Part shown: positions 314-57,778 of the stretch, one piece after another | Position numbering within the stretch: the first letter of the stretch is position 1 | How the letters are laid out: every line of letters starts with the position of its first letter | Assembly (NCBI GenBank): GCA_003990765.1 | Contig: RBNJ01000013.1 | Coordinates: forward strand, 1 to 64,000 | Direction of reading: 5' to 3' | DNA: 64,000 nt | Source: Jimgerdemannia flammicorona | Lineage: Eukaryota | The notes under the pieces: model-generated | Database searches by the model: none | Seen by the model: only the letters and a program-made list of their open reading frames with translations | What the model was told of the DNA's origin: nothing | Made by a program: the position numbers and the translations under genes

Positions 314-3643
<3,330 letters not shown>

Positions 3644-3885
3644 TGTAATGGTGACCCCAGAATGATGACATTAGCATAGGAGATAGCCTTTCCTTACAAG
3701 CTACCAGATTGGAACATAAGAAGATCATATGGCATATGAGATGAGCAATGATGATCAACTGTGAGTCATTGTGACCACAGTATAAGCATCCTGAAGAATA
3801 TAAAAGAAGGATCAAGAAACCACAGTAGCAGCAATCAATAAGAACCACCAATCCCAAAATAGCTCAAAGACTTACCACAAATGAA

Positions 3886-4698
3886 ATGCCTGCTGCCCAC
3901 CAAACTTCAAGGTCAAGAAACCGCCAAGGTATCTCAGTTGAAGAAAGGATGTTCCAAGACATCAGAAGAGTCATAAGGACCCACTCAAGAAGGACTCCTA
4001 GTATCAACCTAGGTACTGCAGACCCCTATTACTTTATCTTCTACTGTCGTGAAATGGAAACAAGAATCACCATTGCTACCAAATACCTCCAAATATGGCA
4101 GGAGTATGAAATAGGAAACCTCCTCTACCAGGAGTTCCCACAGGCCAGCCCTCAAGAGCTACAAGATGCCACTCCCATGGACATATATGAGATAAGAATA
4201 GCCAAGAAGATCCGACATGTACCATGGTCGATCCCCAACTTAGAGTATGTTAGAGTCTCAGATTTCAAAGACCTGTTATTTTGCCATATCAATGTACTAG
4301 AAGCCAGGGTGACTACAGAAGCCTAGTCCACTATTACCCTCAATAGTGATGAAGTAGAAGACTTCTGGCACCCTATCCTCCAGGACAATCCAGACCAATT
4401 CCTGTAAGAGTTGATCTCAGTATTCTAAGGCCCAAGCATCTAGGTTCAATCTCCCCAAGACCCCACATTTGTCTCCTATTTTGTGGAAGAGAACCTCATA
4501 GACTGGAGAGCTTCAGATCTTGTTCCCAATTTTCCTGCCACTGAACATGATGATGTCATTGGCGATGATGTCATCCTGTATGATATCAAAGTACATGAAA
4601 TATATGACCTACATAATGAATTTACAGATCTCATCTCCTTTAGTGATGATGATGATGATGATGATGAAGCCCCTATGGTCCTGAACTTTCTGCTCTAA
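3886..4698 (+). pseudogene. LTR (U3)-encoded accessory ORF, ~270 aa, unknown function; four premature stops in this copy
   Basis: ORFs 3886-4326 and 4483-4698 are in one frame. The stops here (TAG/TAA) are CAG/CAA in sister LTRs. Homologous copies: 17020-17843, 18658-19466, 25924-26730 (+); 30936-31784, 38194-39042, 49071-49877, 56278-57083 (-). Confidence 0.85.
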
Positions 4699-4721
4699 GT
4701 TCTTTGTTATACTGAATAAAG

Positions 4722-4835
4722 CCAGCACTGGTATTTTGATGTAATACTGGATAATTCCAGCACTAGCATTCTGAGGTGATATGAAATTGTTCCAGCACCA
4801 GTATTCTGATATGACACTGAATTATACCAGCATCC
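4722..4835 (+). repeat. 35-bp tandem repeat (3 units plus a partial) in U3 between the accessory ORF and the TATA box
   Basis: CCAGCAC(T/C)(G/A)G(C/T)ATT.TGA...; 1-4 units in the different LTRs. Confidence 0.85.
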
Positions 4836-4937
4836 TGAATCTGTACAACTCTCAGTACCAACTCTGGAACTTAGTAGTTTTAGTTATTGGAATTTATATT
4901 TAGCTTTATATATTAGCAACCATTAAATTATATTTTG

Positions 4938-4970
4938 TATAAATACCCCTCTTATTTCCTCTGAAATAAA
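4938..4970 (+). promoter_or_regulatory. LTR TATA box and polyadenylation signal
   Basis: TATAAA 4938-4943 and AATAAA 4965-4970, conserved in all eight LTRs and in the LTR at 1-313. Confidence 0.65.
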
Positions 4971-5180
4971 GTCAGTTCCTCTCAGTACAATATATATACT
5001 TCCTTGCAAGCAATCTAAGAGATAACAAAATAGTTAAAGATAAGAAGTTTGAGGACTATAAGACCTTGGGAAGGCATTCCAATAAGAACTTGCTTATAAC
5101 AAACTTGAGTTAGTCTAAGAGATACACCTTGAAGAGAATCTGATATATTTGAAGGACTCAGTGACCACTACATGACAACT

Positions 5181-5197
5181 TGGTACCCATTGGCTGG
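5181..5197 (+). promoter_or_regulatory. Primer-binding site of copy A
   Basis: TGGTACCCATTGGCTGG, 3 nt after the LTR; copy C has TGGTGCCC, implying ancestral TGGCGCCC. Confidence 0.8.
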
Positions 5198-5619
5198 TGA
5201 TTCAAGACAAATCTCTCACTTTCAAGCTAAAAAATGAACAACCCCACAACAACTACTCTGACTACAAGAGTCACCCCTGCAAGAATTTAAGACAAGATGG
5301 AAATGCATCTCCCCACATTCTATGGATATACTACTGAAGAGTCAATCCTGATCTTCATTGAAGACTTTGAACAATTTACCACCGTATGAGTCCTTGGTAT
5401 AGATGCTCAATTGGCCCTTCTACCAGTCAGTCTCAGAGGACCTGCCAGAGACAAGTTCAATGCAGCCACCATTGCTGATGCTGGTGCAGCCAAACTTGCC
5501 AACATGAAGGCCTTTTTTTTTTTTTATTTTTTTTATTTTTTATTTTTTTTTTTTTTTATTTTTTTTTTTTATAGACTTGGACTCTGTCTTTATTACCAGT
5601 CTATGAATAAGTATACAAT

Positions 5620-8600
5620 ATCACCACCCACTATCCGATCCCCATAGGGGAGCCCCTCTCTATCTCTTCACAGATAAAGATCACTCTTTCACCAATGACT
5701 CCAACTCTCCCACCACTCTGACCATAGATTTTCTCTACCAAGCAGTACCTCCAACCCCCCTGTAGCCCCCAACTAAGCCACCAGCCTGTTAAGGTGTCCT
5801 CCATAAGGCACTGTCACCATGATAACCAGCTCCCTAAGCTCTGTTGCCTCTCATCCTCAAAAACAAATAGCCAGTGACTAGCCAGCCCAACCCAAATAGC
5901 CAATACCTAGCCTAAGGTAATCCACTCCATTCCTACCCCTCCTACCAATCAATCCCTCAGGTTCTCCCACCTTCCCCATACCACATCTCCCCTATGCCTC
6001 ACCCTCAAGTGGTCTCCAATAGCCCACCAAAAGTCCCCCAATACCTCACACTCTCCTAGCCAATGTTCTGGTATCTGTACAAAGCCCCCTTCCTGCCCCA
6101 CATTATGGCACTCCTTACAGTCAAAGCAACCCCCAATGATAAGGTGCCCTGAGTGGAAGTTGAGCATCACATTCCTCCTCAGCATACACCACCAGACCAT
6201 TCAGTACTTCAGTGGCATTCATTTTTTCACTGTAGCACTTTAGGTCCAAATACCATGCCAGTCCCACTCCTCTCCAATTCCAACTCCTTGCCAACCATTA
6301 GGCCACAGATCCTGGCCTGGTCCTCTTTGGCATTCTACTCCATTACCAATGTTGAACTCAAGTAAAGGTATGCTGCCCAGTAGTATACCATCCCATCTCC
6401 ACATCACCAGGTCCCAAGCCTCCTCCCCCTCATTCCCTTGCCAGCAAATACCAATGCAGTATGTCCCCTCTGCTATCCCCCATCAGAAACCTTTATATCA
6501 TAGTTGTACAGTGTTCTGAAGTCCAACCAATGAGAGAAGATCACCAGTCAAGCCTCTTGGTGATGATCACCTCTCCCAGACCTTCTGCAGTAGGGGAACC
6601 CAACCCCCTCCTCACAACTCCACCACCCTCTTAAGCCACTATGCCCTCAAGCAGTGTAGTCATTTGGGAAAGTCCACCAGTCCAAGACCACCTCTTGCCA
6701 CCAGTAGGGACAAGGTCTCCCAATCGATCTGACTCCATCTGCCAGCCCAAATCCATCCCTTGGTCACCTTCACTAATCTCTTCACCACCCAGGATGGGAA
6801 GTCCAGATGATAAGCCAAATACCACAGCTTCAGCAGCCAGTATACATTCAAAATTGAGATCCTTCCTGCCAGAGAAAAGTGTCTTCCCCCCCAATCTCTC
6901 AGGTCCTCCTCCCAAATTCCAATTCGCTGCTCCCACCACAGTCTGGGCAGAACAGACCCATAGATTGACAGATAGATGTCCAAGTACCACACCACCTCAC
7001 CAGTGGGGACAATTGTTCTAATAACTTCTCCTCCCACTAGGCTGTTGCCCAGCACCATTGTTTTACACTTGTGCTAATTCAGCTTCACCCCAGAGTACTC
7101 CTCATACCACTCCACTGTCTTCTTGAGCTCCTCGACATCAGCAATCGATCCCAAACCAACCACCATATCATCTGCAAAGGCTCCAACTTTCCAACCAATG
7201 CCATAGATAGAAAGCCCCACTATTCTCCACCGAATTCTGTCCATTAGGAGTTCTAAGGAAAGAGTATACAAAATCAGGGACAGTGGGTCCCCCTGGGGCA
7301 CCCCCCTATTCAGAGAGAAAGCTACCCCTCTATGCCCATTACACATGAGCGCAGCCCTACTCCCTTCCAGTAGGCTGACCATTGCTGACTGAAATTGAAC
7401 TAGAATCCCAATTCTATCTAATACTTTCATCAGCTAGATCTGTCGCACCTGGTCATAAGCCTTCTCCTGGCCCAAGAAGACAAGACACCCATTTAGTCCA
7501 CAGGCTCTAGCACCTTCAATAACTCCATATACCCAGGCTGTACCATCTCTAATGAGCCAACCACTCATGAAGCCCCTCTGCTCAATACCTACAATTTGCT
7601 GGACTACCTTCTGTAGTCTTGTGACCACCACCTTAGTCACCAACTTTCTGTCCATATCTAGCAACATTATTGGCTGCCAGTTCTTCCAATCTTCTCGCCT
7701 TCCTTTGTTCTTATAAAGAAGTGTCACCAGCCCAAGATCCTGCTCCCCCACCCATCTCCCTGACTGTAATATAAAGTCACACAGTACCGTCAACTCTCCT
7801 GTCATATCTGGGACTCTAACCATTCACTTCCAGAAGTCCCAGGGTAGGCCGTCCTCCCCAGGTGCTGTATCTGAGACTGTTATGGCAAGAACCTAGCAGA
7901 TCTCATCCTTCTTTACAGGCATCACCAGGTCACCTAGTCCCTTAGCTTGTGATGGATGCCAATCCTCTAATATTCAGTCAATGGCAGTAGCATCCACCCC
8001 ACCCTCCTCCTCACTCCACAATCCACTCCATCACTCCTTCAGTGATCCAAGGATATCCTGTATACTATGCACTAGTACACCATCCGAACCAAGTATCCCT
8101 TCCCACCACTGCTGTACCCTTCTTGCCCTAAGTATCCTCATGAGAAACTTGGAAGGCCTCTCCCCTTCCTCCAGCCTCTGCCAATGAAGCTGTGCCACCA
8201 GGCCTTGCATCCTTGCCTCTTCCTCTTCCTACAGCACCTGTTGTTGTTCCTCAACCTCCATCTTCATCCTCATTATTCTCCAATCCTCTTCTCCCTCCAC
8301 TATTGCCAGTCTCGCCCACTCCTCCAGGCGCCTAGCCAATCTAGTAGAAGCCCAATGCACTCTCTGCCTCCACTGCTTCCCAGCCTCTCTGCCAGCCTCA
8401 CTCTAGTACATCCTGGCCATCTCTTTCATCCTCCTCCACCGAACCCCAATTGAGGCCCCTTCCTGTCACCAGTTCTCCACTTTCAGCTAAATGTCTTTAG
8501 CCCACTCCTCCCACTGGGACTCATCATCTAACAAGGAGGAATTTAGGTACCAATGTCCAGGCCCATCTCCACTTTCCCCAAAATACCCCTGTCCCAAAAG

Positions 8601-9276: not shown

Positions 9277-9304
9277 AATGAAATACGATTTGTTATCAGT
9301 CAAT

Positions 9305-11331: not shown

Positions 11332-13293
11332 GTTGTTAGTCTCTTTACTCCAAAAATGATGTCGTGAGTGTCTTCTAAAGGTTGTGTAACCTGAATGATA
11401 CTGGAGAAAGATGCCAACATGAAGGCCTTCCTCAGAACAATATATTATACCGAAGAGATCAAGCAAGCTCTCAAGGATCAACTCAATACTATCTACCAGG
11501 GACTTAGTGAAGATCTCAACTCATTCTATACCCAAATCTGCTACCAGATTGTCTTGGCTGGCTATAATGACTGCCTCAAGGAACAAATAGTGGACTTAAC
11601 TTTCCTCAAAGGAGTTCACCCTGAAATTGCCCTAGCAATCTGGTCTACTCCAGCTGCACTGACCCTTGATCAGAAAGTGGTCTTTATATAGAGATATTGG
11701 ACTGCCAGACACTCTGCCAAATACTCAATAGAGAAAATAACCAGCATCAAGATGGAGCCATCAAAGCCAACTAGTATCTTACCCACCACAGTTGTAAACA
11801 GACAACCAACCCCACCTATCCCCAAGATAGCCAAAGCTGATCCAGTGGAAGAACTCGCCAAGCAGTTCGCTGAGATGACTGCACACCTTAGTGATGTTGT
11901 TAGAGAAGTCTGAAGCACTAACAGGAGACCAATGCAGAGATTTGCAGCTGCTATAGAAGAATGCAATATCACATGCTTCAGATGCAGAGAAGAAGGCCAC
12001 TATGCAAAGAATTGTATGACTGAAACAAGATGCAAAGCCCAACCAAGCAATGTTAGCAGAACCAGAGAACAAACCAATGCAGTAGTCATCAAGGAGATTG
12101 GTGATACTGATGATGAAGAATACTATGAGGAGCTTGAATTCTACCCTATTACTGAAGATACCAGAACCCAGTCCAAACCCTATGACAAGAAGAGCAACAG
12201 CAAGCCAGTTGAAAGACCAAAGAAGACACCAGCTATCACTATTCAAAGCAAGACCCAACCCGAGAAGATTGATCAAGATATAGAGTTGGATGAAGCTGCC
12301 CACCAAATCATTGAAGGCACTACTCCAGTCTCAGGAGAAAGCAAAAGCAAGAAGAAACAGAAGCTACACAAGACCAAGATCCACCAGTATGACATCTACA
12401 AGGACCTTAAGGAACAAAAGATCAATGCTACCTTTGAACAGCTAGCTGAAGTCCCTGCCTTCAGACAGCAGTTGAGAGTAGGACTTACAACTACTACCAA
12501 GAATCAAGAGTACAAGATTGTAGAAGCTCACAATATACAGAAAGAATCTGAGAACTTAGGTGAAGAATCTAAAGACCAGCACAAGACATCAGCCTATATC
12601 CCATGTCAGATCGAAAATTGTATCTTTGATGTCATCATTGATACTAGTGCTGGAGGATGTCTTATGAGCAAGAAGACAATTGACTGCCTAGGCTGGGACA
12701 TTGAAGAGTCCACCAAGATGTTCTATGTTACAGCAGATGGTATACAAGCTATCCCCCTTGGCAAAATCCAAGAAGTCCTCATCAAGATAGGAGGAGCTAC
12801 CATCTCAGTAGATGTGATTGTTACAAGCACCACCAACTATGGCATCCTCATTGACAACTAATGGCTCCACAAGGCTAAGGCCATCATTGACCTCAATGCC
12901 CAGAAGATGCAGATCAACTATAGAGGAAGAAAGATACAAGTCTCTATCAATGTCTACAAAGGAGTTCTACCAGACATAGAGGAAGGAGATGAAGAAGACA
13001 CAGAGGTCTTCATGCACTTGGTGAACAAGAACAAGAATAAGACACCCAAGCTCACAGATGAGCAGTGGTACAACAAGATCATTGATGGCTATACCCCTCA
13101 AGGAAGATGCCCCCATAGTACTAGGATGTACTGCTCTGAACACCTGAATGACTGCTGGTCCTATATCAGTGAAGTCAGGAAAATCTGCCAACAGAAACAT
13201 GAGCAAGAAGCTGCTGAAGCCAAAGAAGATGACCAGCCCCCAGAGCTCCAAGCTGATAGCAATGATGAGGAGGAACAAGAATCAGACATCACC

Positions 13294-13704
13294 CTCAAGA
13301 TCAAGAAGTTTCACCCTGAAGCCAAGATCTCAGAATATAAAACTGAAGGAGCCATAGGAATAGACCTTGCCAGCATTCCAGATACTATCCTTGAACCACA
13401 GACCACCACTCTACTTGGCACTGGAATTGGAGTCAAGCTGCCAGAGAACTATGCCAGATTTATCAAAACCAGGAGCAGTCTGACCAAAAGCAAAATCTCA
13501 GTTAAAGGAGAAGTAATTGACCCTGATTACACTGGTGAGATCTTTCTCATAGTCAGAAATCACAACTACACCACCCCCTTCGAAGTCAAGAAGTATGACA
13601 GGATTGGCCAAATACTGATCTACGAAATCAAGAAGCCCAAGATCATTGAAGCCATTGAACTCATCAAGACCAAGAGAGGAGAACAAGGCTTTGGATCTAC
13701 TGGA
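13294..13704 (+). other. Trimeric-type dUTPase domain between protease and RT
   Basis: GAIGIDL, TRSSL, G(G/E)VIDPDYTGEI, DRIGQ, RGEQGFGSTG: all five dUTPase motifs, present in B, C, D and element 0. Confidence 0.95.
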
Positions 13705-15217
13705 AGAGGAGCCTATACTGCTATCAAGATTACCAAACTCAAGCATAAGAAAGATAAGGACCAGAATAAGCACACATATATTATTGGAGAAAACTTTTCC
13801 CTGGAGGAATAACTTCTCAAGATTCTGTACCAGAATGAAGAAGTACTTGTTACAGACTTCAAGGATATCCACAATCAAGAACCTAAGTACTACCATGAAG
13901 TTGACACTGGTGATACCAAGCCCATCTACCAGAAAGTCAGATACATATCACCAGCCTACAGAGAGTGGCTGTGAGCAGAACTCAAGGAAATGGAAGAAGC
14001 TGGGATCATCAAGCAAGCTATCAGCCCCTGGGCCTCACCCATTGTCCTTGCCCTGAAGAAAGGAAGCAAGCCTGGAGAGTTTGTGCCAAGACTCTGCATT
14101 GACTACAGGAAGCTCAATGCCATCACCAAGAAGGATAGGCAGCTCTTGCCAAATATTCAAGAAATCCTTACCACCCTTGGAAGTGAAGCCAAATACTACA
14201 CCACCTTGGATCTGTTCTCAGACTTCCATCAGATTGGTCTCACTTAAGATGCCAGTGAGAAATCAGCCTTCATCATACCTGATACCACCTATATCTACCT
14301 GCTAATGCCATTTGGAATGTGCAATGCCCCAGCAAGTTTTCAGCGAATGATGAACAGAGTCTTCAGCAACGAGATTGGAAAATAGCTCTTTATCTATGTT
14401 GATGATGTGATCATCTTCAGCAACACTATACAGGAATATGTCAATCACATACAGCTAGCCCTCAAGAAGCTCAAGGAGCATGGCCTCTACATCAAGCCTA
14501 AAAAATACAAGTTTGCAGCTCAAGAAATCACCTACCTAGGACACCTCATCAACAAGACCAGAATCCACACAGACCCCATGAAGATTGAGGCTGTTGCAGT
14601 CTACTCAAGACCCAGAACAACTACAGAAGTCCACACCTTCCTTGGACTGGCCAGCTACTACAGAAGATTCATCAAAGGATACTCCAATATTGCAGCACCT
14701 ATCTATGAGCTACTGAAGAAAGAGACCAAATTCGAATGGACTAAGGAGTGCCAAGAAATCTTCAATGAACTCAAGACCAGGTTGACCCAAGCACCTATCC
14801 TCAGAAGACCAGACTGGAACCTAGAATTCATCCTGCAGACAGACATGAGTGCTATAGGACTTAGAGCAGTCCTAGCTCAGAAGAAAGATGGACATGAATA
14901 TGTCATCTCCTATGCAAGCCAAGATACTTGCGGAGCAGAACAGAACTATGAGTCATGCAAGCTCAAATGCTTAGCAGTAGTTTGGGCAGTAGACAAGTTC
15001 CACTACTATCTAGCCAGGAAATACTTCACCATTCAAACAGACCACTCTGCTCTTGCCTGGCTATTCCACACTCTGAACCCCAAAAGAATATATACCAGAT
15101 AGATCTACAGGCTGCAAGAATATGACTGTACTGTCAAGTACTGCTCAGAAAAGACCAACACCAATGCTGATACACTCTCAAGGACACCCCGAAACACCCC
15201 CATTAAGACTATTCAAT

Positions 15218-16464
15218 ATGAATAAGGAGCTATACTATGGATTAATCAGCTACCTTAGGCAGCAGAAGATGCCCAACCACCTTGAATCTTGGACAATCAA
15301 CATCATCAACCAGACTTGGAAACAGTTTGAATTAGACAACACTATACTCAGAAAAGGAGGAAAGCTAGTAATATCTGAATACAAGAAGTATTAAGTAATG
15401 AAGGAAGTATATGAGCAAGGACACTTAGGAGGAACCAAGTTATATGACAAAGTAAGAAGAACTATATGGTGGCCCAAGATAGAAGAAGACCTGCACCAAT
15501 TTGTCAAAGGGTGTGACAAGTGCCAAAAACAGAAACAAGATCAGCAAGATCAGGCATCTGGATTATCAAGAATTGAGCCTATCTCCTTCCACCATATTGC
15601 AATGGATATCATTGGACCACTACCAGTAACACTATCAGGAAATCACTATATTATAGTTATTGTAGACCTCTTCACCAAATAGATAGAGGCAGGAGCATTA
15701 CAAGAAGCCAATGCCCTCTCTATAGCTGACTTCCTGCACTAAGAAATCATCTGCCACTACAAGACACCAAAGCAAATCACAACAGACCACAGAACAGAAT
15801 TTGTCAATAGATTCCATGAGATAATATATCAGAAATACAAGATCCAGTACATTACAACCACTGTGTACCACCCTCAAGGAAATAGACAGACAGAGAGAAC
15901 CAACAAAACCCTCAAGAACATTCTAGCAAAGATCTCAGAGACATATGAGAATTGGGATAACTATCTCCCAACTGCCCTCTCTGTCCTATGAGATATATGG
16001 TCACAGAGCACACACTTTACTCCAAGAGAGCTGCTCTTCAGAGAAGAAGATTCTGATGGAACCTCAGCTACGAATCTAGACCTAACTTGGAGACAGGTTG
16101 ATGCAGAAATCTGGAGACTACACCAAATCAGGAAGAAGGCTGAAGATTACATCACCAAGTCACAAGCACTGATAAAGAAGAATGCAGAAAAGAATCACAA
16201 GGCCCTAGAACCCATCCAAATCAGAGAAAAGGTTCTACTATATTGAAATATGATAGAAGCCTCATGGTTGCAAAAACTAGAGCCCAAATTGGAAGGACCC
16301 TTCTATATGCAAGATACAAGGAAACCACTTTCTGGCTTAGAAAAATCTCAGAGGCCATACTGCCTACTACAGTACATAGGAACAGACTCAAGAAGTACCA
16401 CAAACCTATACAAGAGAAGCAAAATGTGATGACCACCCATGAGGTTCTAGTCTACAAATCATAA
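15218..16464 (+). pseudogene. Copy A integrase, separate ORF (HHCC, DDE core, GPF module, no chromodomain)
   Basis: MNKELYY start; H..GHLG...CDKCQ; MDIIGPLP; TTD.GTEF; YHPQGNGQTERTN; PKWEGPFY. Confidence 0.92.
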
Positions 16465-16777
16465 CAGCATGTCCTGTGACCAGCAGACTATCTATCTGGA
16501 CCATTCTCTAAGGGATATGGTACTGGCAACTACTTATCTATGAGACTTTCAAAGTCAGAGGAGTTCGAACTGTCAACTGATTGGTCAAGATCAGAATCAG
16601 GCCCTTGCTCTATATGAAGGGAGCAACCCTTCACCATCATGCCAAAATACAAAGGGAAGACACCAGCCTAAAAATACCACTTTTTGACCCCTTGCCAGAG
16701 GTTATAAGATCAGCAAATTTTTCAGGACTGAACCAATGAATAAGGATGCTCAGGAAGATCCTTATTCAGGAGGAAGA

Positions 16778-18321
16778 TATAATGGTGACCCCAGAATGAT
16801 GACATTAGCACAGGAGACAGCCTTTTCTTGCAAGCTACTAGATCAGAACACAAGAAGATCATACAGCATATGAGATGAGCAATGATGACCAACTGTGAGT
16901 CATTATGATCACAGTATAAGCATCCTGAAGAATATAAAAGAAGGATCAAGGAATCACAGTAGCAGCAACCAACAAGAACCACCAATCCCAAAATAGCTCA
17001 AAGACTTACCACAAACAAAATGCCTGCTGCCCACCAAACCTCAAGGTCAAGGAATCACTAAGATATCTCAGTCAAAGAAAGGATATTCCAAGACATCAGA
17101 AGAGTCATGAGGACCTGCTCAAGAAGGACTCCTAGTGTCAACCTGGGTACTGCAGACCCCTATCACTTTATCCTCTACTACCATGAAATGGAAACAAGGA
17201 TAACCATTGCTACTGAATGTCTCCAAATATGGTAGGAGTATGAAATAGAAAACCTCCTCTACTGGGAGTTTCCACAGGCCAGCCCTCAAGAGCTATAAGA
17301 TGCCACTCCCATGGACATATGTGAGACAAAAATAGCTAAGAAGATCCATCAGATCTTCAGGCATGCACCATGGTCAATCCCCAACTTAGAGTATATTAGA
17401 GTCTCAGATTTCAGAGATCTGTCATCTCACTGTATCAATACATAGAAGCCAAGGTGGCTACAGAAGCCCAGCCCACTATCACCCTCAATAGTGATGAAGT
17501 AGGAGACTTCTGGCACTCTATCCTTCAGGACAACCCAGACCAATTCCTATAAGGGTTGATCTCAGTATTCCAAGACCCAAGCATCTGGATTTGATCTCCC
17601 CAAGACCCCACATTTGTCCCCTATTTTGTGGAAGAGAACCTCATAGACTGGAGAGCTCCAGATCTTGTTCCCAATTTCCCCACTGCTGAACATGATGATA
17701 TCATCAGCAATGACATCATCCTGTGTGACATTAAAGTATGCGAAACACGTGACCTATATGATGAATTTGCAGATCTCATCTCCTTCAGTGATAATGATGA
17801 TAATGATGATGAAGCCCCCATGGTCCTGAACTTTCTGCTCTAAGTTCTTTATTATACTGAATAATACCAGCACCAGTATTTTGATGTAATACTAGATAAT
17901 TCCAGCACTGGCATTTGAGGTGACATGAAATTGTTCCAGCACTAATATTCTGATGTGATACTGAATTATACCAGTATCCTGAACCTGTAAAACCCTCAGT
18001 ACTGACTCTGGAACTTAGTAGTTTTAGTTATTGGAATTTATATTTAGCTTTATATCTTAGCAACCATTGAATTATATTTTGTATAAATACCCCTCTTATT
18101 TCCTCTAAAATAAAGTCAGTTCCTCTCAGTACAATACACACACTTCCTTGCAAGCAATCTAAGAGATAACAAGATAGTTAAAGATAAGAAGTTTGAGGAC
18201 TATAAGATCTTGGGAAGGCACTCTAATAAGAACTTGCTTATTACAAACTTGAGTTAGTCTAAGAGATATACCTTGAAGAGAATCTGACATATTTGAAGGA
18301 CTCAGCAACTACTATATGACA
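16778..18321 (+). repeat. 3' LTR of copy A
   Basis: TATAATGG (TG changed to TA)...ATGACA, directly after the PPT. Confidence 0.95.
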
Positions 18322-18415: not shown

Positions 18416-21400
18416 TATAATAGTGACTTCAGAATGATAACATCAATACAAAAGACAGTCTTTCCTTATAAGCCATCAGATTGGAGTACAAGAAGATCAT
18501 ATAGCATATGAGATGAGTAATAATGCCCAACTGTGAGTCATTGTGACCACAGTTCAGATATCTTGAAGAATATAAAAGAAGGATCAAGGAACTACAGTAG
18601 TAGCAACCAACAAGATTCACCAATCTCAAAATAGCTTAAAGACTTACCACAAATGAAATGCCTGCTGCTCACCAAATCTCAAGGTCAAGGAACTGCCAAG
18701 GCATCTCAGTCAAAGAAAGAATATTCCAAGACATCAGAAGAGCCATGAGGACCTACTCAAGAAGGACTCCTAGTATCAATCTGAGTACTAGTGACCCTTA
18801 TTATTATATTCTCTATCACTGTAAAATGGAAACAAAGATCACTATTGCTATCAAATATCTCCAAATATAACAGAAGTATGAAATAGGAAACCTCTTCTGC
18901 TGGGAGTTCCCACAGGCCAGCCTCCAAGAGTTATAAGATATCACTCCTATGGATATATATATGTGAAGCAAGGATAGCTAAGAAGATCTATCAGATCTTC
19001 AGGCATGCACCATAGTTGATCCCCAACTTAGAGTATGTTAAAGTCTCAGATTTCAGAAATCTATCATCCTGCCATATCAATGTACTAGAAACCAGAGTAG
19101 CTACAGAAGCCTAGTCTACTATCTCTCAATAGTGATGAAGTAGAAAACTTCTGACATCCCATCCTCCAGGATAACCCAGACCAATTCCTGCAAGGATTGA
19201 TCTCAGTATTCTAAGGCCCAAGTATCCAGATTAGACCTCTCAAAGACCCCACATTTGTCCCCTATTTTGTAGAAGAGAACCTCATAGACTGAAGAGCCCC
19301 AGACCTTCTTCCTGCCATCACTAAACATGATAACATCATTGATGATGATGTCATCCTGCACAATATTGAAGCATATGAAATGTGCAATAATGACAAATTC
19401 ACAGATCTCATCTCCTTCAGTGATGATAAGAATGAAGCCCCTATGGTCTTGAACATTCTGCTCTAAAGTTCTTTAGTTACACTGAGTTATGCCAATATTG
19501 GTATTCTGATGTAATACTGAGTTATACCAGTACTGGCATTCTGACATAATACTGAATTATACTAACATTCTGAACCTGTACAACCATCAGTACTGACTCT
19601 GGAACTTAGCAGTTTTTTCTGTCCTGGCATTTCATTTTAGTTATTGAAATTTATATTTAGCTTTATATGTATCTTAGCAACTATTGAATTATATTTTGTA
19701 TAAATACTCCTCTTATTTCCTCTGAAATAAAGTCAGTCCATTCAGTCTATTCAGCCCATTCAGTCTATTTAGTCCATTCAGTCTACTCAGTGCAATATAC
19801 ACACTTCCTTGCAAGCAATCTAAAAGATAACAAGATAGTTTAAAGATAAGAAGTTTGAGGACTATAAAACCTTGAGAAGGCACTCCAATAAGAACTTGCT
19901 TATAACAAACTTGAGTTAGTCTAAGAGATACACATTGAAGAGAATCTGGTGTATTTGAAGGACTCAGTGACTACTATGTGACAACTTGGTACCCATTGGC
20001 TGGTGATTCAAGACAAATCCCTCACTTTCAAGCTAAAAAATAAATAACCCCCACAATAACTACCCTGACTACAAGAGTCACTCCTACAAGAATTCAAGAT
20101 AAGATAGAAATATGTCTCTCCACATTCTATAGATATACTACTGAAGAGTTAATCCTGACCTTCATTGAAGACTTTGAATAATTTGCCACCATATGAGCTC
20201 TTACTGTAGATACACAATTGGCCCTTCTATTAGTCTGCCTCAGAGGACCTACTAGAGGTAAGTTTAATGTAGCCACTATTGCTGATAATGGTGCAGCCAA
20301 ACTTGCCAATATGAAGGCCTTTCTCAGAACAACATACTATACTGAAGAGATCAAGCAAGCTCTCAAGAATCAACTCAACACTATTTGCCAGAGACTTAGT
20401 GAAGATCTCAACTCATTCTATATCTGAATCTGCCACCAGATTGTCTTGGCTGACTATAATGATACTCTCAAGGAACAAATAGCAGATTCAACCTTTCTCA
20501 AAGGAGTTTACCCTGAAATTGCTCTAGCAATCTGGTCTACTCCAGCTATACTAACCCTTGATCAGAAAGTGGTCTTTATACAGAGATATTGGACTGCCAG
20601 ACACCCTGCTGAATACTTAATGGAGAAAATAACTGGTATCAAGATGGAGTTATATATCAAAGCCAACTAGTATCATACTTGCTATAGTTGTAAATAGACA
20701 ACCAACCCCACCTACTCTCAAGGTAGCCAAAGCTGACCCAGTGGAGGAGCTTGCCAAGCAGTTCACCGAGATGACAGTATACCTTAGTAATGTTGTTAGA
20801 GAAGTCTGAAGTGCCAATAGGAGACCAATGCAGAGATGTACAGCTACTACAGAAGAATACAATATTACATGCTTTAGATGTAGAGAAGAAGGCCACTATA
20901 TAAAGAATTGCATGACTAAAACAAGATGCAAAGCCCAACTAAGTAATGCTAGCAGAACCAGAGAACAAACTAATACAGTAGTCATCAAGGAGATTGGTAA
21001 TACTGATGATAAAGAATACTATGAAGAGCTTAAATTCTACCCTGCTATTGAAGATATCAGAACCTGGTCCAAGCCCTATGATAAGAAGAGCAACAACAAG
21101 CCAGTTGGAAGACCAAAAAAGACCCCAGCTGTCACTATTCAAAGCAAGACTCAATCTGAGGAGATTGATCAAGATATGGAGTTAGATGAAGCTGCCTATC
21201 AAATTGTTGAAGGCACTACTCCAGTCTCAGGAGAAAGTAAAAGTAAGAAAGAACAGAAGCTGTGCAAGACCAAGACCCACCAGTATGATATCTACAAGGA
21301 CAAAAGATTAATGCTACTTTTGGATAGCTAGCCAAAGTCTCTGCCTTCAGACAGCAGTTGAGAGTAGGACTTACAACTACTGCCAAGAATCAAGAGTATA

Positions 21401-24400: not shown

Positions 24401-27347
24401 ATTTGTTAAAGGGTATGACAAGTGCCAAAAACAGAAATAATATCAGCAAGACCAGGTACTCAGGTTATCAAGAATTGAGCCTATCCTCTTCCACCACATC
24501 ACAATAGATATCATTGGGCCACTACCAGTAATACTATCAGAAAACTACTATATTATAGTTATTGTAGACCTCTTTACCAAATGGATAGAAGCAGGAGCAT
24601 TATAAGTCAATGTCCTCTCTATAGCTGACTTTCTGCACTAAGAAATCATCTGCCACTATAAGACACCAAAGCAAATCACAACAGACTGTAGTACAGAATT
24701 TGTCAATAGATTCTATGAGATAATGTATCAGAAATACAAGATCCAGTACATCAAAACCACTACATACCACCCTCAAGGAAATGGACAGACAGAGAGAACC
24801 AATAAAATTCTCAAGAACATCCTAGCAAAGATCTCAGAGACATATGAGAATTGGGATAATTATCTCCCAACTGCCCTCTCTGTTCTATAAGATATATGGT
24901 CACAGAGTATACACTTTATCTCAAGGGAACTGCTCTTTGGAGAAGAAGATTCTGATAGAACCTCAGCTACAAATCTAGATCTAACTTAGAGATAGGTCAA
25001 TACAGAAATCCAGAGACTACATCAAATCAGGAAGAAGGCTGAAGATTATATCATCAAGTCACAAGTGCTGATAAGAAAGAATACAAAAAAGAATCACAAG
25101 ACCCTAGAACTCATCCAAATTGGAGAAAAGGTCCTACTATATTGAAATATAGTAGAAGCCTCATGATTGCAAAAACTGGAGCCCAAATGGGAAGGACCCT
25201 TCTATGTATATGCAAAATATCAAGAGAACTACCTTCTGGCTTAGAAAAATCTCAGAGACCATACTGCCTACTATAGTACACAGGAACAGACTCAAGAAGT
25301 ACTACAAACCTATATAAGAGAAGCAAAACATAATAACCACCCATGAGGTTCTAGTCTGCAAATCATAACAGCATGTCCCATAACTAGCAGACTATCTGTC
25401 TGGACCATTCTCTAAGAGATACAGTACTAATAACTACTTATCCATAAGACTTTCGAAGCTAGAGAAGTTTGAACCATCAACTGATTGATCAATATCAGAA
25501 TCAGGTCCTTGCTCTATATGAAGAGAGTGACCCTTCACCATTATGCCAAAATACATAGGAAAGATACTAGCCCATAAACACCACTTTTCGATCCCTTATC
25601 AGAGATTATGGGATTAGCAAATTTTTCAGGACTGGACCAATGAATAAGGATGCTCAAGAAGATCCTTATTCAGGAGAAAGATATAATGGTGACCCCAGAA
25701 TGATGATATCAGCACAAGAGACAGCCTTTTCTTACAAGCTACCAGATCAGAGCACAAGAAGATCATACAGCATATGAGATGAGTAATGATGACCAACTGT
25801 GAGTCATTGTGACCACAGTTTAGATATCTTGAGAAATATAAAAGAAGGATCAAGGAACTGCAGTAGCAGCAACCAACAAGACCCACTAATCTCAAAATAG
25901 CTCAAAGACTTACCACAAATGAAATGCCTGCTGCTTGCTAAACCTCAAGATCAAGGAACCACTAAGATATCTCAGTTGAAGAAAGGATGTTCCAAGACAT
26001 CAGAAGAGCCATAAGGACCCACTCAAGAAGGACTCTTAGTGTCAACCTGAATACTAGTGACCCTTATTATTATATTTTCTACTGCTATGAAATGGAAAAA
26101 ATGATCACTATTACTATCAAATATCTCTAAATATGGTAGAAGTATAAAATAGAAAACCTTCTCTGCCAGGAGTTCCCACAGGTCAGTCTCCAAGAGTTAC
26201 AAGATGCCACTCTCATGGATATATGTGAAGTAAGGACAGCTAAGAAGATTCATCAGATCTTCAGGCATGCACTATGATCAATCTCCAACTTAAAGTATAT
26301 TAGAGTCTCAGATTTCAGAGACCTGTCATCCCACCATATCAATACACTAGAAACCAGGGTAGCTACAGAAGCCCAGTCCACTATCACTCTCAATAGTGAT
26401 GAAGTAGAAGACTTCTGGCATCCCATCCTTCAGGACAACCCAGACCAATTCCTACAAGAATTGATCTCAGTATTCCAAGGCCCAAGCATCCAGGTTAGAC
26501 CTCCCCAAGACTCCACATTTGTCTCCTATTTTGTGGAAGAGAACCTCATAGACTGGAGAGCCCCAGACCTCCTTCCTGTCACCATCAAATATAATGATGT
26601 CATTGTTAATGATATCATTCTGTATGACATTGAAGCATGTGAAATATGTAATGACAATAAATTCACAGATCTCATCTCCTTCAGTGACAATAAGGATGAA
26701 GCCCCTATGGTCTTGAACATTCTGCTCTGAAGTTCTTTGGTTACACTGAGTTATGCCAGTACTGGCATTCTGACATACATAACACTGAATTATACCAGTA
26801 TCCTGAATCTGTACAACTATTAGTGCTAACTCTGGAACTTAGCAGTTTTTCCTGTCCTGGTATTTTATTTTAGTTATTGGAATTTATATTTAGCTTTATA
26901 TCTTAGTAACAATTGAATTATATTTTATATAAATACTCCTCTTATTTCCTCTGAAATAAAGTCAGTCCATTCAGTCCATTCAGTCCATTTAGTCCATTCA
27001 GTCCATTCAGTCCATTCAGTCCATTCAGTCCATTTAGTCTATTCAGTCCATTTAGTCCATTTAGTTCATCCAGTCTATTCAGTCTATTCAGTCTATTTAG
27101 TCCATTCAGTCCATTCAGTTTATTCAGTCCATTCAGTCTATTCAGTCTACTCAGTACAATATACACACTTTCTTACAAGCAATCTAAAAGATAACAAGAC
27201 AGTTTAAAGATAAGAAGTTTGAGGACTATAAGATCTTAGGAAGGCACTCCAATAAGAACTTGCTTATAACAAACTTGAGTTAGTCTAAGAGATACACCTT
27301 GAAGAGAATCTGGTGTATTTAAAGAACTCAGCAACTACTATATGACA
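18416..27347 (+). mobile_element. Ty3/Gypsy copy B (full length)
   Basis: LTRs 18416-19983 and 25682-27347; TSD GCAG (18412-18415) and GTAG (27348-27351); PBS at 19987; polyprotein ~20040-24127; integrase 24120-25368. Confidence 0.96.
26963..27151 (+). repeat. 9-bp tandem repeat (CAGTCCATT) x21 in the 3' LTR of B
   Basis: Directly visible; only 6 units in the 5' LTR of B (19734-19787). Confidence 0.95.
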
Positions 27348-45941: not shown

Positions 45942-45942
45942 A

Positions 45943-48558: not shown

Positions 48559-51500
48559 TGTCATGTAGTGGTTGCTGAGTCTTTCAAATACACCAGATTC
48601 TCTTCAAGGTGTATCTCTTAGACTAACTCAAGTTTGTTATAAGCAAGTTCTTATTGGACTGCCTTCCTAAGGTCTTATAGTCCTTAAACTTCTTATCTTT
48701 AACTGTCTTGTTATCTCTTAAATTGCTTGCAAGGAAGTGTGTGTAAGTAAAACTGGAACTGACTTTATTTCAGAGAAAATAAGAGGGGTATTTATACAAA
48801 ATATAATTCAATGGTTGCTAAGATATAAAGTTAAATATAAATTCCAATAACTAAAACTACTAAGTTCCAGGGTTGGCACTGATGGTTGTACAGGCTCAGG
48901 ATACTGGTATAATTCAGTGTCATATCAGAATACTGGTGCTGGAATAATTTCGCATCACCTCAGAATACTGGTACTGGAACAATTTCACATTACCTCAGAA
49001 TACTGGTGCTGGCATTATCCAGTGTTACATGAGAATACCAGTGCTGGCATTATCCAGTGTAACAAAGAACTTAGAGCAGAAAGTTCAGGACTATGTGGGC
49101 TTCATTCTCATCATCATCATCACTGAAGGAGATGAGATCTATAAATTTATCATTTTCACATGATTTGATGTTATACGAGATGACATCATCACTGATGACA
49201 TCATCATGTTTGGTGGGGAAATCAGAGAGGAGGTCTGGGGCTCTCCAGTCTATGAGGTTCTCTTCCACAAAATAAGGGACAAATGTGGGATCTTGGGGAG
49301 ATCTAACTCAGATGCTTGGGCCTTGGAATACTGAGATCAACCCTTGCAGGAATTGGTCTGGGTTGTCCTGGAGGATAGGGTACCAGAAGTCTTCTACTTC
49401 ATCACTATTGAGGGTGATAGTGGACTGGGCTTCTGTAGCTATCCTGACTTCTAGTGCATTGATACAGTGGGATAACAGATCTCTGAAATCTGAGACTCTA
49501 ATATACTCCAAGTTGGGGATCAACTATGGTACATGTCTGAAGATCTGATAGATCTTCTTAGCTGTCCTTATTTCATATATATCCATGGAAGTGGCATCTT
49601 GTAGCTCTTGAGTGCTGGCCTGTGGGAACTCCTAGCAGAGGAGGTTTCCTATTTCGTACTCCTGCCACATTTGGAGACATTCAGTAGCAATGGTGATCCT
49701 TGTTTCCATTTCACAGCAGTAGAGGATAAAGTGATAAGAGTCTGCAGTACTCAGGTTGACACTAGGAGTTCTTCTTGAACAGGTCCTCATGGCTCTTCTG
49801 ATGTCTTAGAACATCCTTTCTTTGACTGAGATACCTTGGTGGTTCCTTGACCTTGAGGTTTGGTAGGCAGCAGGCATTTTGTTTGTAGTAAGTCTTTGAG
49901 CTATTTTGGGATTGGTGGTTCTTATTGGTTGCTGCTACTGCAGTTCCTTGATCCTTCTTTTATATTCTTCAGGATACTTGTACTGTGGTTACAATGACTC
50001 ACAGTTAGTCATCATTGCTCATCTTGTATACCATATGATCTTCTTGTGTTCTGATCTGGTGACTTATAAGGAAAAACTATCTCCCATGCTAATGTCATCA
50101 TTCTGAGGTCACCATTACATCTTCCTCCTGAATAAGAATCTTCTTGAGTGTCCTTATTCATTAGTCCAGTCCTGAAAAATTTGCTGATCTCATAACCTCT
50201 GGCAAGGGGTCAAAAAGTGGTGTTTATGGGCTGGCATCTTCCCTTTGTATTTTGGCATAATGGTAAAGAGTTGCTCCCTTCATATAGAGCAAGGGCCTGA
50301 TTCTGATCTTGACTAATCAATTGATGGTTCAAACTCCTCTAACTTTGAAAGTCTTACAGATAAGTAGTTACCAGTGCCATATCTCTTAGAGAATGGTCCA
50401 GACAGATAGCCTGCTGGTCACAGGACATGCTGTTATGATTTGCAGACTAGAACCTCATGGGCAGTCATCATGTTTTGCTTCTCTTGTATAGATTTGTGGT
50501 ACTTCTTGAGTCTGTTCCTATATATTGTAGTAGGCAGTATAGTCTCTGAGATTTTTCTAAGCCAGAAGGTAGTTCCCTTGATATCTTGCATGTAGAAGAG
50601 TTCTTCCCATTTGGGCTCCAGTTTTTGTAACTATGAGGCTTCTACCATATTTTGATACAGTAGAACCTTTTCTCCAATTCAGATAGGTTCTAGGGCCTTA
50701 TGATTCTTTTCTGTATTCTTCCTTATCAGTGCTTGTAACTTGGTGATATAATCTTCAGCCTTCTTCTAGTCTCCAGATTTCTGCATCAACCCATCTCCAA
50801 GTTAGATCTAGATTCATGGCTGAGGTTCCATCAGAATCTTCTTCTCCGAAGAGCAGCTCTCTTGGAGTAAAGTGTGTGCTCTGTGACTATATGTCTCATA
50901 GGACAGAGAGGGCAGTTGGGAGATAGTTATCCCAATTCTCATATATCTCTGAGATCTTCACTAGGATATTCTTGAGGGTCTTGTTGGTTCTCTCTATCTG
51001 TCCATTTCCTTAAGGGTGGTATATAGTGGTCTTGATGTGCTGGATCTTGTATTTCTGATATATTATCTCATGGAATCTATTGACAAATTCTGTTCTGTAG
51101 TCTGTTGTGATTTGCTTTGGTGTCTTGTAGCAGTAGATGATTTCTCGATGCAGGAAGTCAGCTATAGAGAGGGCATTGGCTTCTTGTAATGCTCCTGTCT
51201 CTATCCATTTGGTGAAGAGGTCTACAATAACTATAATATAGTGGTTTCCTGATAGTTTTACTGATAGTGGTCCAATAATATCCATTGTGATATAGTGGAA
51301 GGGGATAAGCTCAATTTTTAATAATCTGGATACCTGGTCTTGCTGATCTTGTTTCTGTTTTTGACACTTGTCACACCCTTTGACAAATTGGCACAGGTCT
51401 TCTTCCATCTTGGGCCACTATATGGTTCTTCTTGCCTTATCATATGTATTGGTTCTTCCTAAGTATCCTTGCTCATGTACTTCCTTCATTACTTGATACT

Positions 51501-54500: not shown

Positions 54501-57325
54501 ACTAGTGGATCTTGGTCTTGCATAGCTTCTGTTCCTTCTTGCTTTCACTTTCTCTTGAGACTGGAGTAGTGCCTTTAATGATTTGGTGGGCAGCTTCATC
54601 TATATAACTCCATGTCTTGATCAATTTTCTCAGGTTGGGTCTTGCTTTGAATAGTGACAGCTGGGGTCTTCTTTGGTCTTCCAACTGGCTTGCTGTTGCT
54701 CTTTTTGTCATAGAGCTTGGACTGGGTTCTGGTACCTTCAGTAGTAGGATAGAATTCAAGCTCCTTATAATATTCTTCATCATCAGTGTCACCAATCTCC
54801 TCAATGACTACTGTATTGGTTTGTTCTCTGGTTCTACTAGTATTGCTTAGTTGGGCTTTGTGTCTTATTTTGGTTATGTAATTCTTTGCATAGTGGCCTT
54901 CTTCTCTACATCTGAAGCATGTGATATTGCATTCTTCTATAGCAGCTGCAAATCTCTGTACTAGTCTCCTGTTAGTGCTTTGGACTTCTCTAACAACATC
55001 ACTAAGGTATGCAATCATCTCAGCAAACTGCTTAACAAGTTCCTCCACTGGGTCAGCTTTGGCTATCTTGGGGATAGGTGGGGTTGATTGTCTGTTTACA
55101 ACTATAGCAGGTAAGATACTAGTTGACTTTGATGGCTCTATCTTGATGTCAGTTATTTTCTCTATTGAGTGTTCGGCAGAGTGTCTGGCAGTCCAATATC
55201 TCTATACAAAGACTACTTTCTGATCAAGAGTCAGTGCAGCTGGGGTAGACCGGATTGCTAGGGCAATTTCAGAGTGAACTCCTTTGAGGAAAGTTGAATC
55301 TGCTATTTGTTCCTTGAGGCAGTCATCATAGCCAGCCAAGACAATCTGGTGGCGGATTCAGGTATAGAATGAGTTGGGATCTTCACTAAGTCTCTGGCAG
55401 ATAGTATTGAGTTGATCCTTGAGAGCTTGCTTGATCTCTTTGGTATAATATATTATTCTGAGGAAGGCCTTCATGTTGGCAAGTTTGGCTGCACCAGCAT
55501 CAGCAATGGTGGCTATATTGAACTTGTCTCTGGTAGGTCCTCTGAGGCTGACTGGTAGGAGGACCAATTGAGTATCCATACCAAGGGCTTGGATAGTAGC
55601 AAATTGTTCAAAGTCTTCAATGAAGGTCAGGATTGACTCTTCAGTAGTATATCCATAGAATGTGGGGGGATATATTTCTATCTTATCTTGAATTCTTGCA
55701 GAGGTGACTCTTGTAGTCAGGGTAGTTGTTGTGGAGTTGTTCATTTTTCAGCTTGAAAGTGAGGGATTCGTCTTGAATCACCAGCCAATGGGTACCAAGT
55801 TGTCATATAGTGGTCACTGAGTCCTTCAAATATGCCAGATTCTCTTCAAGGTGTATTTCTTAGACTAACTCAAGTTTGTTATAAGCAAGTTCTTATTGGA
55901 GTGCCTTCTCAAGGTCTTATAGTCCTCAAACTTCTTATCTTTAACTGTCTTATTATCTCTTAGATTGCTTGCAAGAAAGTGTGTGTAAGTGAAACCAGAA
56001 CTGACTTTATTTCAGAGGAAATAAGAAGGATATTTATACAAAATATAATTCAATAGTTGCTAAGATATAAAGCTAAATATAAATTCCAATAACTAAAACT
56101 ACTAAGTTCCAGGGTCAGCACTGATGGTTGTACAGATTCAAGATGCTGGTATAATTCAGTGTCACATCAGAATATCAGTGCTGAAACAATTTTGCATCAT
56201 CTCAGAATATTGGTGCTGGAACAATTTTACATTACCTCAGAATACTGGTACTGGTATTATCCAGTATAACAAAGAACTTAGAGCAGAAAGTTCAGGACCA
56301 TGGAGGCTTCATTCTCATCATCATTATCACTGAAGGAGATGAGATCCATGAATTTGTTATTTTCATATGCTTCGATGTTGCGCAGGATGACATCATCGCC
56401 AATGACATCATCACATTCGGCAGGGAAATCAGGGAGAAGATCTGGGGCTCTCCAGTCTATAAGGTTCTCTTCTACAAAATAAGGAACAAATGTGGGGTCT
56501 TGGAGAGATTAATCTGAATGCTTGGGCCTTGAAATACTGAGATCAACCCTTGTAGGAATTGGTCTGAGTTGTCCTGAAGGATAGGGTACCAGAAGTCTTC
56601 TACTTCATCACTATTGAGGGTGATAGTGGACTGGGTTTCTGTAGCCACTCTGGCTTCTAGTGCATTGATATGATGGGATGATAGGTCTCTGAAATCTGAG
56701 ACTCTAATATACTCTAAGTTGGAGATCAACCATGGTGTATATCTGAAGATCTGATAGACCTTCTTAGCTGTTCTTGTTTCATATATATCCATGGGAGTAG
56801 TATCTTGTAGCTCTTGAGTGCTGGCCTGTAGGAACTCCCAGCAGAGGAGGTTTCCTATTTTGTACTCTTACTATATTTGGAGGCATTCAGTAGCAATGGT
56901 GATCCTTGTTTCCATTTCATAATGGTAGAGGATAAAGTAATAGGGGTCTGCAGTACTCAGATTGACACTAGGAGTCCTTCTTGAGTGGGTCCTCATGGCT
57001 CTTCTGATGTCTTGGAACATCCTTTCTTTGACTGAGATATCTTAGTAGTTCCTTGACCTTGAGGTTTAGTGGGCAGCAGGCATTTTGTTTATAGTAAGTC
57101 TTTGAGCTATTTTGGGATTGGTAGTTCTTGTTGATTACTGCTACTGTAGTTCCTTGATCCTTCTTTTATATTCTTCAGAATGCTTATACTGTGGTCACAA
57201 TGACTCACAGTTAGTCATCATTGCTCATCTCATATACTGTATGATCTTCTTGTATTCCAATCTGGTGGCTTGCAAGGAAAGGCTGTCTCCTATACTGATG
57301 TCATCATTCTGAAGTCACTGTTACA
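48559..57325 (-). mobile_element. Ty3/Gypsy copy D (full length)
   Basis: LTRs 55801-57325 (5') and 48559-50119 (3'); TSD TTAG at 48555-48558 and 57326-57329; polyprotein 51662-55744; integrase 50433-51669. Confidence 0.96.
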
Positions 57326-57329
57326 TTAG

Positions 57330-57740: not shown

Positions 57741-57778
<38 letters not shown>

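Follow-up and report, generated by a model that had tools for sequence, protein, structure and literature searches.

Genes inside a long terminal repeat (LTR) are known mainly from complex retroviruses, and LTRs are usually treated as non-coding promoter and terminator modules, which annotation pipelines mask. Complex retroviruses carry regulatory genes at their 3′ end, such as tas/bel1 in foamy viruses and tax/rex in the human T-lymphotropic virus (HTLV), and the lentiviral nef overlaps the unique 3′ region of the LTR (U3). The present analysis concerns an open reading frame (ORF) found in the LTRs of four retrotransposons (elements A to D) of Jimgerdemannia flammicorona, in a stretch of 64,000 nts of contig RBNJ01000013.1 (assembly GCA_003990765.1, positions 1 to 64,000 of the forward strand; hereafter, the window). 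The frame is very probably the decayed remnant of a real, selected protein-coding gene, as a reading of the letters of this stretch (hereafter, the sequence-only reading) had proposed.

The arrangement recalls that of sag in MMTV (mouse mammary tumour virus), likewise a sense ORF of about 300 codons lying wholly within a long (>1.2 kb) LTR, upstream of its TATA box, and duplicated at both ends of the provirus. However, sag is a gene of a betaretrovirus, whereas the carrier here is a Ty3/Gypsy retrotransposon without env, in a fungus-like eukaryote without adaptive immunity. Furthermore, the LTR ORF protein shares neither sequence nor fold similarity with Sag and shows, by eye, no membrane segment but a basic N-terminus and an acidic tail instead. 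With the complex retroviruses, the elements of the window have in common an additional gene located at the 3′ LTR region or within it and, in the role suggested below, possibly also a transactivator with an acidic activation region acting on its own U3 repeats. In those viruses, an early regulatory RNA exceeding the gag-pol RNA would match the excess of LTR over gag RNA found here. The gene of the window differs in being located entirely within the LTR and probably unspliced. No homology to Sag, Tas/Bel1, Nef or Tax was found with Pfam, in the PDB by sequence (E≤1) or in BFVD and the PDB by fold (E≤0.001).

Extra ORFs have also been described in LTR retrotransposons. In plants, the additional ORFs (aORFs) of Ty3/Gypsy elements are lineage-restricted and located in the internal region, and the phrases “in the LTR” and “within the LTR” are absent from the review in question (PMC7264820). 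The Botrytis element Boty carries the antisense brtn (bioRxiv 10.1101/2021.04.13.439636), and CERV, an accessory protein of the C. elegans LTR retrotransposon Cer1, is required to export genomic RNA (PMC10309623). The frame of the window resembles these three in being an additional ORF that is restricted to a lineage and whose function is regulatory or unknown; they are located between LTR and gag, between pol and LTR, or in antisense, whereas the ORF described here lies inside the repeat. In the Gypsy element Tmt1 of Tuber melanosporum, a dUTPase is found between the protease and the reverse transcriptase (RT) (PMC5408684, PMC2864245), as is also the case in elements A to D. Literature searches turned up no description of a protein gene within a retrotransposon LTR, in fungi or elsewhere; an earlier mention related to Tmt1 is possible.

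A reading frame kept by purifying selection

A BLASTN search of the whole window with positions 3601-5250 as query recovered eight LTR copies of about 1.53 kb, and the same frame of about 270 codons is present in all eight, wholly inside the repeat (Table 1). As the sequence-only reading had it, every LTR carries the ORF upstream of a TATA box, the ORF ending about 240 nts before the TATAAATA box in 8/8 LTRs. The copies contain 36 in-frame stops at 17 codon sites, three to seven per copy, none of which is common to all eight, while the remaining two reading frames of the LTR contain many more stops than the ORF frame. At 16 of the 17 sites, the stop is a single transition away from the CAA, CAG or TGG read in other copies; the last site, TGA versus AGA, is found in the frameshifted copy A3. 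The proposal that stops in one copy are CAA or CAG codons elsewhere, and that the consensus is therefore open, is thus borne out, with TGG as an additional source, and a search for a consensus with fixed stops found none shared across the eight copies. The TGG sites, the frameshifts in three copies (A3, B5 and D5) and the 12-nt deletion of copy A5 had gone unreported. The tail lengths proposed for the subfamilies, 71, 65, 79 and 65 amino acids (aa) after VEENL in A, B, C and D, were matched exactly. The supposedly near-invariant C-terminal end EAPMVLN(F/I)LL stands in six of the eight copies and is replaced by EAHIVLNFLL in D3 and EASMVLNFLL in D5.

The copies were destroyed by a decay of repeated DNA from C to T and G to A, which is either similar to repeat-induced point mutation (RIP) or driven by methylation. 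The two LTRs of a single element are 87-90% identical, and over 90% of the mismatches in the four pairs are transitions (154/169, 190/204, 147/160 and 173/191). Once polarised using the other copies, the mismatches are dominated by C>T (239) and G>A (164), the C>T changes being distributed over CpA (121), CpC (87) and CpT (31) contexts, and the observed/expected ratio of CpG is 0-0.08 in all eight LTRs (e.g., 3644-5177). Classical RIP in Neurospora shows a strict CpA preference; the mixture of CpA, CpC and CpT is unlike such a bias and suggests that two kinds of decay may have acted. When the two LTRs of an element are compared, the ratio of nonsynonymous plus nonsense to synonymous changes in the ORF is 160/90 = 1.78, equal to the 1.67-1.86 expected from random C>T and G>A changes; after insertion, the ORF decayed neutrally. 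Between elements, the same ratio is 99/101 = 0.98 (p=0.002, the pairs not being independent).

A family profile built from the five unshifted window copies, with stops read as X, led to intact homologues of 271, 323, 325 and 342 aa in public metagenome-type collections. Profile searches recovered the full-length P0004 (271 aa), P0011 and P0013 (323 aa), P0003 and P0009, to which exhaustive and repeat searches added P0019, P0021 (342 aa, encoded on a 4848-bp contig), P0022 and P0024 (325 aa). The homologues of these four lengths are spread over four clades, down to about 30% identity, and keep the N- and C-terminal motifs at full length. In the tree, the window copies form a subclade of their own (support 98/99) adjoining P0003. 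Reconstructed as they would have been before insertion, the window proteins share 84-89% identity with P0003 and 31-33% with P0024. The family is small, with about a dozen clusters among 1.8-5.8 billion proteins, and without annotation. No homologue was found among viral contigs (viral_contigs collection), and a search for longer fused forms of the protein, which is weak evidence, found none. In the six frames of the window, the family hidden Markov model (HMM) matches the eight LTR ORFs alone, which rules out a duplicate of gag or pol.

One homologue, L001, is available with its DNA, a 1345-bp contig with the ORF at 69-1040. The contig shows neither LTR ends nor an adjoining primer-binding site (PBS) or gag, so that its LTR context is read solely from the TATA and poly(A) blocks that it shares with the window. 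Of two scans of metagenome contigs, one gave no homologue; the other yielded L001 and a further contig, L002, which was discarded as spurious because the family HMM gives no match. Over 204-209 core codons, the comparison of L001 with the window copies or their inferred ancestors gives a pN of 0.22-0.25, a pS of 0.62-0.71 and an omega (dN/dS) of 0.13-0.21, while shifting the alignment one or two bases out of frame raises omega to 1.03-1.83. Similarly, transitions relative to L001 number 59-71 at third positions versus 19-31 at positions 1 and 2. Comparison of the pre-insertion sequences inferred for the four elements gives an omega of 0.21-0.43 in frame against 0.52-1.76 shifted; these reconstructions suffer from contamination, as hot sites decayed in parallel in the two LTRs. 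Hence dN/dS is not near 1, either against the divergent intact relative or between subfamilies.

The distribution of indels points in the same direction. An indel found in both LTRs of one element predates insertion, and all such indels are in frame (9/9), versus 1/5 of those private to one LTR (Fisher p=0.005). No part of the LTR varies more than the tail, which has 0.019 transversions per site; the 5′ non-coding part, the ORF core and the region from the stop to the second TATA box have 0.002-0.005, and the region from there to the end has 0.015. Yet in this hypervariable tail, the frame was never lost before insertion. Purifying selection thus maintained the gene as long as the elements were active, and the earlier claim of a real accessory gene within the LTR, with its frame preserved, is supported by dN/dS, indels and intact homologues alike.

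The encoded protein

The protein family is unnamed and conserved, and its members of 270-340 aa consist of a basic N-terminus of about 45 aa, a helical core of about 170 aa and a variable acidic-hydrophobic tail. In the five full-length members (5/5 for each feature), the first 45 aa are basic, with a net charge of +1 to +8, the core is acidic, and the tail of 59-126 aa has a net charge of -15 to -27, 18-40 bulky hydrophobic residues, F/L/I/W scattered along it and DL[IL]xF-type repeats. The N-terminal charge is weakest in P0021 (+1), and P0004 carries the arginine-rich RRAMRTRTRR. Acidic-hydrophobic tails are typical of acidic activation domains, and the tail, judged by composition only, would count as such an activation region. 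For the roles suggested in the sequence-only reading (transactivator, anti-silencing factor or adaptor-binding protein), the argument is likewise one of composition only, from the basic N-terminus and the acidic-hydrophobic tail. In addition, the DL[IL]xF-like motif loosely recalls co-activator contacts of the LDFS and LXXLL types as well as clathrin-box-like peptides, both of which are leads. AlphaFold2 predicts a helical core at residues ~47-160, with a predicted local distance difference test score (pLDDT) of 64-78, between a disordered N-terminus and a disordered tail; the mean pLDDT is weak in this run (54) and in a second, core-centred one (51).

A match to an already described family was looked for in Pfam, the PDB, Foldseek searches of the PDB and BFVD, VIA and the literature, and none was found. 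Pfam holds no family for the LTR ORF protein, whether the window copies or 12 intact homologues are used, and for the latter only chance-level rows were returned (ATG5_HBR, E 0.028, in 3/12); no known DNA-binding or activation domain was detected by Pfam either. A sequence search of the PDB gave 0 matches at E≤1, and Foldseek gave none against the PDB and BFVD at E≤0.001. In the VIA fold search, the best Z was 3.3, and the top folds (Z 2.5-3.3), mostly helix-turn-helix regulators, are at noise level. The ESM Atlas, with a best feature score of 0.83 and a TM≤0.33, gave no lead.

Repeat anatomy, RNA and competing explanations

The non-coding part of the repeat contains two TATA boxes, one on either side of the ORF (Table 1). 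Upstream of the first, TATAAAAG, the invariant TGAGTCA is, going by its consensus, a site of the AP-1/Gcn4 type and putatively functional. L001 also carries TATAAAAG, 65 nts upstream of its ATG. Between the ORF stop and the second TATA box are 35-bp tandem repeats, which may be enhancer-like, each unit containing the dyad CCAGNNCTGG. Their number varies by subfamily; D3 has 2.5 and 2.1 copies in two rows that overlap, and B has fewer. The second TATA box, TATAAATA, is followed after 24 nts by AATAAAG, and this module and its spacing are conserved in L001. Otherwise, the non-coding DNA of L001 cannot be aligned with the window LTRs outside three shared blocks, GAATATAAAAG upstream, ACAAACAAAATGCCTGC in the start context and CTGTATAAATACCCCTC..TGAA(A)TAAA downstream.

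The second TATA box and AATAAA would be the genomic promoter and poly(A) module of the element, a reading that places the ORF in U3, while the first TATA box is a candidate promoter of the LTR ORF itself. The U3 placement already given in the sequence-only reading is plausible, since the 35-bp repeats, like the TATAAATA-24 nt-AATAAA module, are found downstream of the ORF and are conserved in the relative.

Two RNA runs, X1 and X2, were analysed as unstranded assembled contigs, summed over all genomic copies and placed on the stretch 53000-64000 of the window, with LTR copy D5 as the repeat. The organism of the window occurs in a root metatranscriptome, which, like the type of element, the many short GT..AG introns and the RIP-like decay, is indirect evidence of a fungal host. 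The contigs of X1 and X2 match the neighbouring host genes with 0-1 mismatches and are spliced, with at least 13 GT..AG joints, which identifies both runs as RNA of the same organism. The depth of the LTR bins is 8-269 in X1 and 629-3362 in X2, versus 0-12 and 0-2, respectively, in the gag bins (53000-55568); host exons are covered at 35-84 and 52-92. At two stop codons of D5, the contigs read C and hence a sense codon: codon 6 (57068) in 10 X1 and 7 X2 contigs, and codon 72 (56870) in 4 contigs of each run. Among the joints listed, no GT..AG joint leads into the LTR or leaves it. Dense LTR RNA beside scant gag RNA is better explained by LTR-only transcripts than by full-length element RNA. 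Expression from that part of the element RNA which corresponds to the 3′ LTR, as envisaged in the sequence-only reading, is not supported, with LTR depths of 8-3362 against gag depths of 0-12.

The contig ends at 57112-57114 were considered as a transcription start and rejected, since the ends of RNAs cannot be read from contigs and the LTR upstream of these positions carries RNA as well; they are probably assembly branch points. At the other end of the same LTR, the last ~130 nts of the unique 5′ region (U5; 55801-55935) reach an X2 contig depth of about 10,000 at 55875; this peak might come from an RNA that is short and abundant, or from a segment that another family also contains.

The overall explanation of an LTR-borne, separately transcribed nuclear regulator, encoded by a real selected gene, is favoured, though only somewhat. 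Taken by itself, the separate LTR transcript stands at about even chances, while the transactivator-like role of the product is a tentative suggestion. The gene in U3 would form its own small transcription unit in each LTR, starting at TATAAAAG about 87 nts before the ATG and ending at the AATAAA of the LTR. Such a unit would produce an mRNA of about 1.1 kb from both LTRs, presumably from solo LTRs too, independently of the gag-pol RNA. The product would be a nuclear regulator working like a transactivator, a step that carries less weight than the separate transcription unit. Its basic N-terminus would serve nuclear entry or nucleic-acid contact and its acidic-hydrophobic tail would act as an activation domain, the target being the promoter region of the element itself, i.e., the 35-bp repeats with their dyads that precede the second TATA box. 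It is also conceivable, if rather unlikely, that the LTR is a self-contained cassette of promoter, ORF and poly(A) signal, which feeds a family-wide activator or anti-silencing factor from 5′, 3′ and solo LTRs.

Several results weigh against the separately transcribed regulator. RNA is also present in the part of the LTR that precedes the first TATA box (depth 2219 at 57245 in X2), and contigs cross both LTR edges into unlike flanks (loose ends 55800, 57311 and 57330), so that the first TATA box is no more than a candidate start. The U5 end is about 10 times deeper than the ORF in X2, and differences between the contigs and D5 run either way about equally often (69 A>G and 76 G>A in X1), which suggests that many transcribed copies may be decayed themselves. 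The LTR RNA, in contigs which are unstranded and pooled over copies, would also fit read-through, antisense RNA or small-RNA precursors. None of the eight LTR ORFs of the window is intact (0/8). To the same side belong the bare L001 contig, the contamination of the pre-insertion reconstructions, the blank Pfam, PDB, Foldseek and VIA searches, including the one for DNA-binding or activation domains, and the weak structure models.

A first rival accepts the gene and has it expressed from the U3 copy at the 3′ end of the element RNA, as in the sequence-only reading, by way of an mRNA that is subgenomic or spliced, or of an internal promoter close to the 3′ LTR, on the model of MMTV sag or foamy-virus tas, with no promoter inside each LTR. 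It would account for the RNA covering the LTR from its first ~80 nts, upstream of TATAAAAG, which a start at that box cannot explain. It would also agree with the conserved TATAAATA/AATAAA core promoter downstream, which puts the ORF in U3 and thus at the 3′ end of every full-length RNA. However, the scant coverage of gag beside the LTR in the same runs, the lack of a GT..AG joint into or out of the LTR among the joints listed, and the TATA box kept at a conserved distance before the ATG, even in the divergent L001, make this mode of expression improbable.

A second rival, given the same low chance, concerns the product, which would act after transcription as an adaptor of the Rev/Rex/CERV kind, exporting or stabilising RNA, or would suppress the silencing of repeats by the host (methylation, RIP-like mutation or RNA interference). 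The arginine-rich N-terminus of P0004 and the conserved hydrophobic C-terminus, in which VLNFLL resembles an export signal, are in line with such a role, as is the fact that the host mutates its repeats and depletes them of CpG, as seen in the CpG ratios and the transitions of the LTR pairs. The accessory protein reported for Cer1 offers a precedent for the export of genomic RNA (PMC10309623). However, Pfam, PDB and fold searches show no similarity to any protein of these kinds, the element RNA gives no sign, among the joints listed, of splicing that would call for an export factor, and the N-terminal charge is weak in one clade (+1, P0021).

That the frame is not a functional gene of the element, but open by chance or owing to its composition, or else a conserved cis-acting nucleotide element or a captured host fragment hitch-hiking in the LTR, is very improbable and already largely refuted: the breakage of all window copies (8/8), the dozen or so unannotated clusters and the poor structure models would fit it, but an omega of 0.13-0.21 in frame versus 1.0-1.8 shifted, the excess of third-position transitions, pre-insertion indels exclusively in frame and intact full-length ORFs in four clades, down to ~30% identity, speak against it.

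Carrier elements, their surroundings and what the gene would mean

Elements A to D are Ty3/Gypsy LTR retrotransposons in which a dUTPase is placed between the protease and RT. All four have direct LTRs with TG..CA termini, whose exact ends were located, and are flanked by 4-bp target duplications (4/4). The PBS-like TGGTACCCATTGGCTGGTGA is found 3 nts past every 5′ LTR, and no tRNA matching it is present within the window; a purine tract (..GGAGGAAGA) precedes each 3′ LTR. The order of Pfam domains in the internal region is zf-CCHC, aspartyl protease, dUTPase, RVT_1, RT_RNaseH, Integrase_H2C2 and rve. No Chromo domain was matched by Pfam at E≤0.01 in copies A, B, C and D, all of which are heavily mutated.

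Table 1. LTR ORF copies, carrier elements and repeat features, by position in the window
Feature	Position	Strand	Details
LTR ORF copy A5	3886..4698	+	270 codons + stop; 4 internal stops; private 12-nt in-frame deletion
LTR ORF copy A3	17020..17843	+	5 stops; -1 frameshift
LTR ORF copy B5	18658..19466	+	7 stops; +4 and -2 frameshifts
LTR ORF copy B3	25924..26730	+	5 stops; frame kept
LTR ORF copy C3	30936..31784	-	3 stops; ATG changed to ATA; frame kept
LTR ORF copy C5	38194..39042	-	4 stops; ATG changed to ATA; frame kept
LTR ORF copy D3	49071..49877	-	4 stops; frame kept
LTR ORF copy D5	56278..57083	-	4 stops; -1 frameshift; reference for RNA contigs
Element A	3644-18321	+	LTR ends; 4-bp target duplication GTAT
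Element B	18416-27347	+	4-bp target duplication GCAG/GTAG, differing by one transition
Element C	30455-39284	-	4-bp target duplication ATAT
Element D	48559-57325	-	4-bp target duplication CTAA
5′ LTR, element A	3644..5177	+	1534 bp; TG..CA ends
TGAGTCA	3762..3768	+	unchanged in 8/8 decayed LTRs; ~35 nt upstream of first TATA box
First TATA box, TATAAAAG	3799..3806	+	87 nt upstream of ATG; in all 8 LTRs
35-bp tandem repeats	4705..4832	+	3.7 copies in A5; each unit with CCAGNNCTGG dyad
Second TATA/poly(A) module, TATAAATA box + AATAAAG	4938..4971 (4938-4945, 4965-4971)	+	
PBS-like TGGTACCCATTGGCTGGTGA	5181..5200	+	3 nt beyond 5′ LTR end
Element A gag zinc knuckle, protease, dUTPase, RT, RNase H, integrase	11800..16777	+	Pfam; Ty3/Gypsy domain order

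Within the gag of element A, an insertion of about 6.3 kb (5430-11700) is GC-rich (about 50%) and strongly C-skewed; its minus strand carries an RVT_1 domain, and a T-run is found at about 5480-5540, the low end of the insertion. This insertion looks like a non-LTR (LINE-like) retrotransposon in antisense orientation, and its high GC content beside a decayed Gypsy element suggests that it arrived later or escaped the C-to-T decay. In the 3′ LTR of element B, the 9-nt unit TCAGTCCAT is repeated in 21.6 tandem copies right behind AATAAAG (26962-27155); in the 5′ LTR of element B, the unit occurs just a few times, hence the array was altered after insertion.

Between elements C and D, the region 39300-48550 is AT-rich (22-40% GC) and contains relics of other transposons: near 40-40.7 kb, the plus strand carries a fragment of a Gypsy-type RT/RNase H, and near 43 kb, a hAT dimerisation domain is found on the minus strand. 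The region 58900-64000 contains expressed host genes with many exons of ~130 nts, GT..AG introns of 72-212 nts and spliced RNA contigs. One of these genes, at about 62.9-64 kb, is dihydroxy-acid dehydratase-like by eye and highly covered in X2.

If the gene of the window is what it appears to be, the gene-in-LTR architecture is not peculiar to a few vertebrate retroviruses, and thousands of LTRs and solo LTRs in fungal genomes rich in transposable elements may be, or may have been, coding units. It would also add a new orphan protein family, open to direct testing, and a concrete system for the study of retrotransposon self-regulation or counter-silencing in fungi. Should the LTR in addition be a self-contained cassette, it would be to a fungal retrotransposon what the regulatory genes are to complex retroviruses; the factor would be made by the repeat and not by the gag-pol body, so that solo LTRs would sustain the activity of the family.

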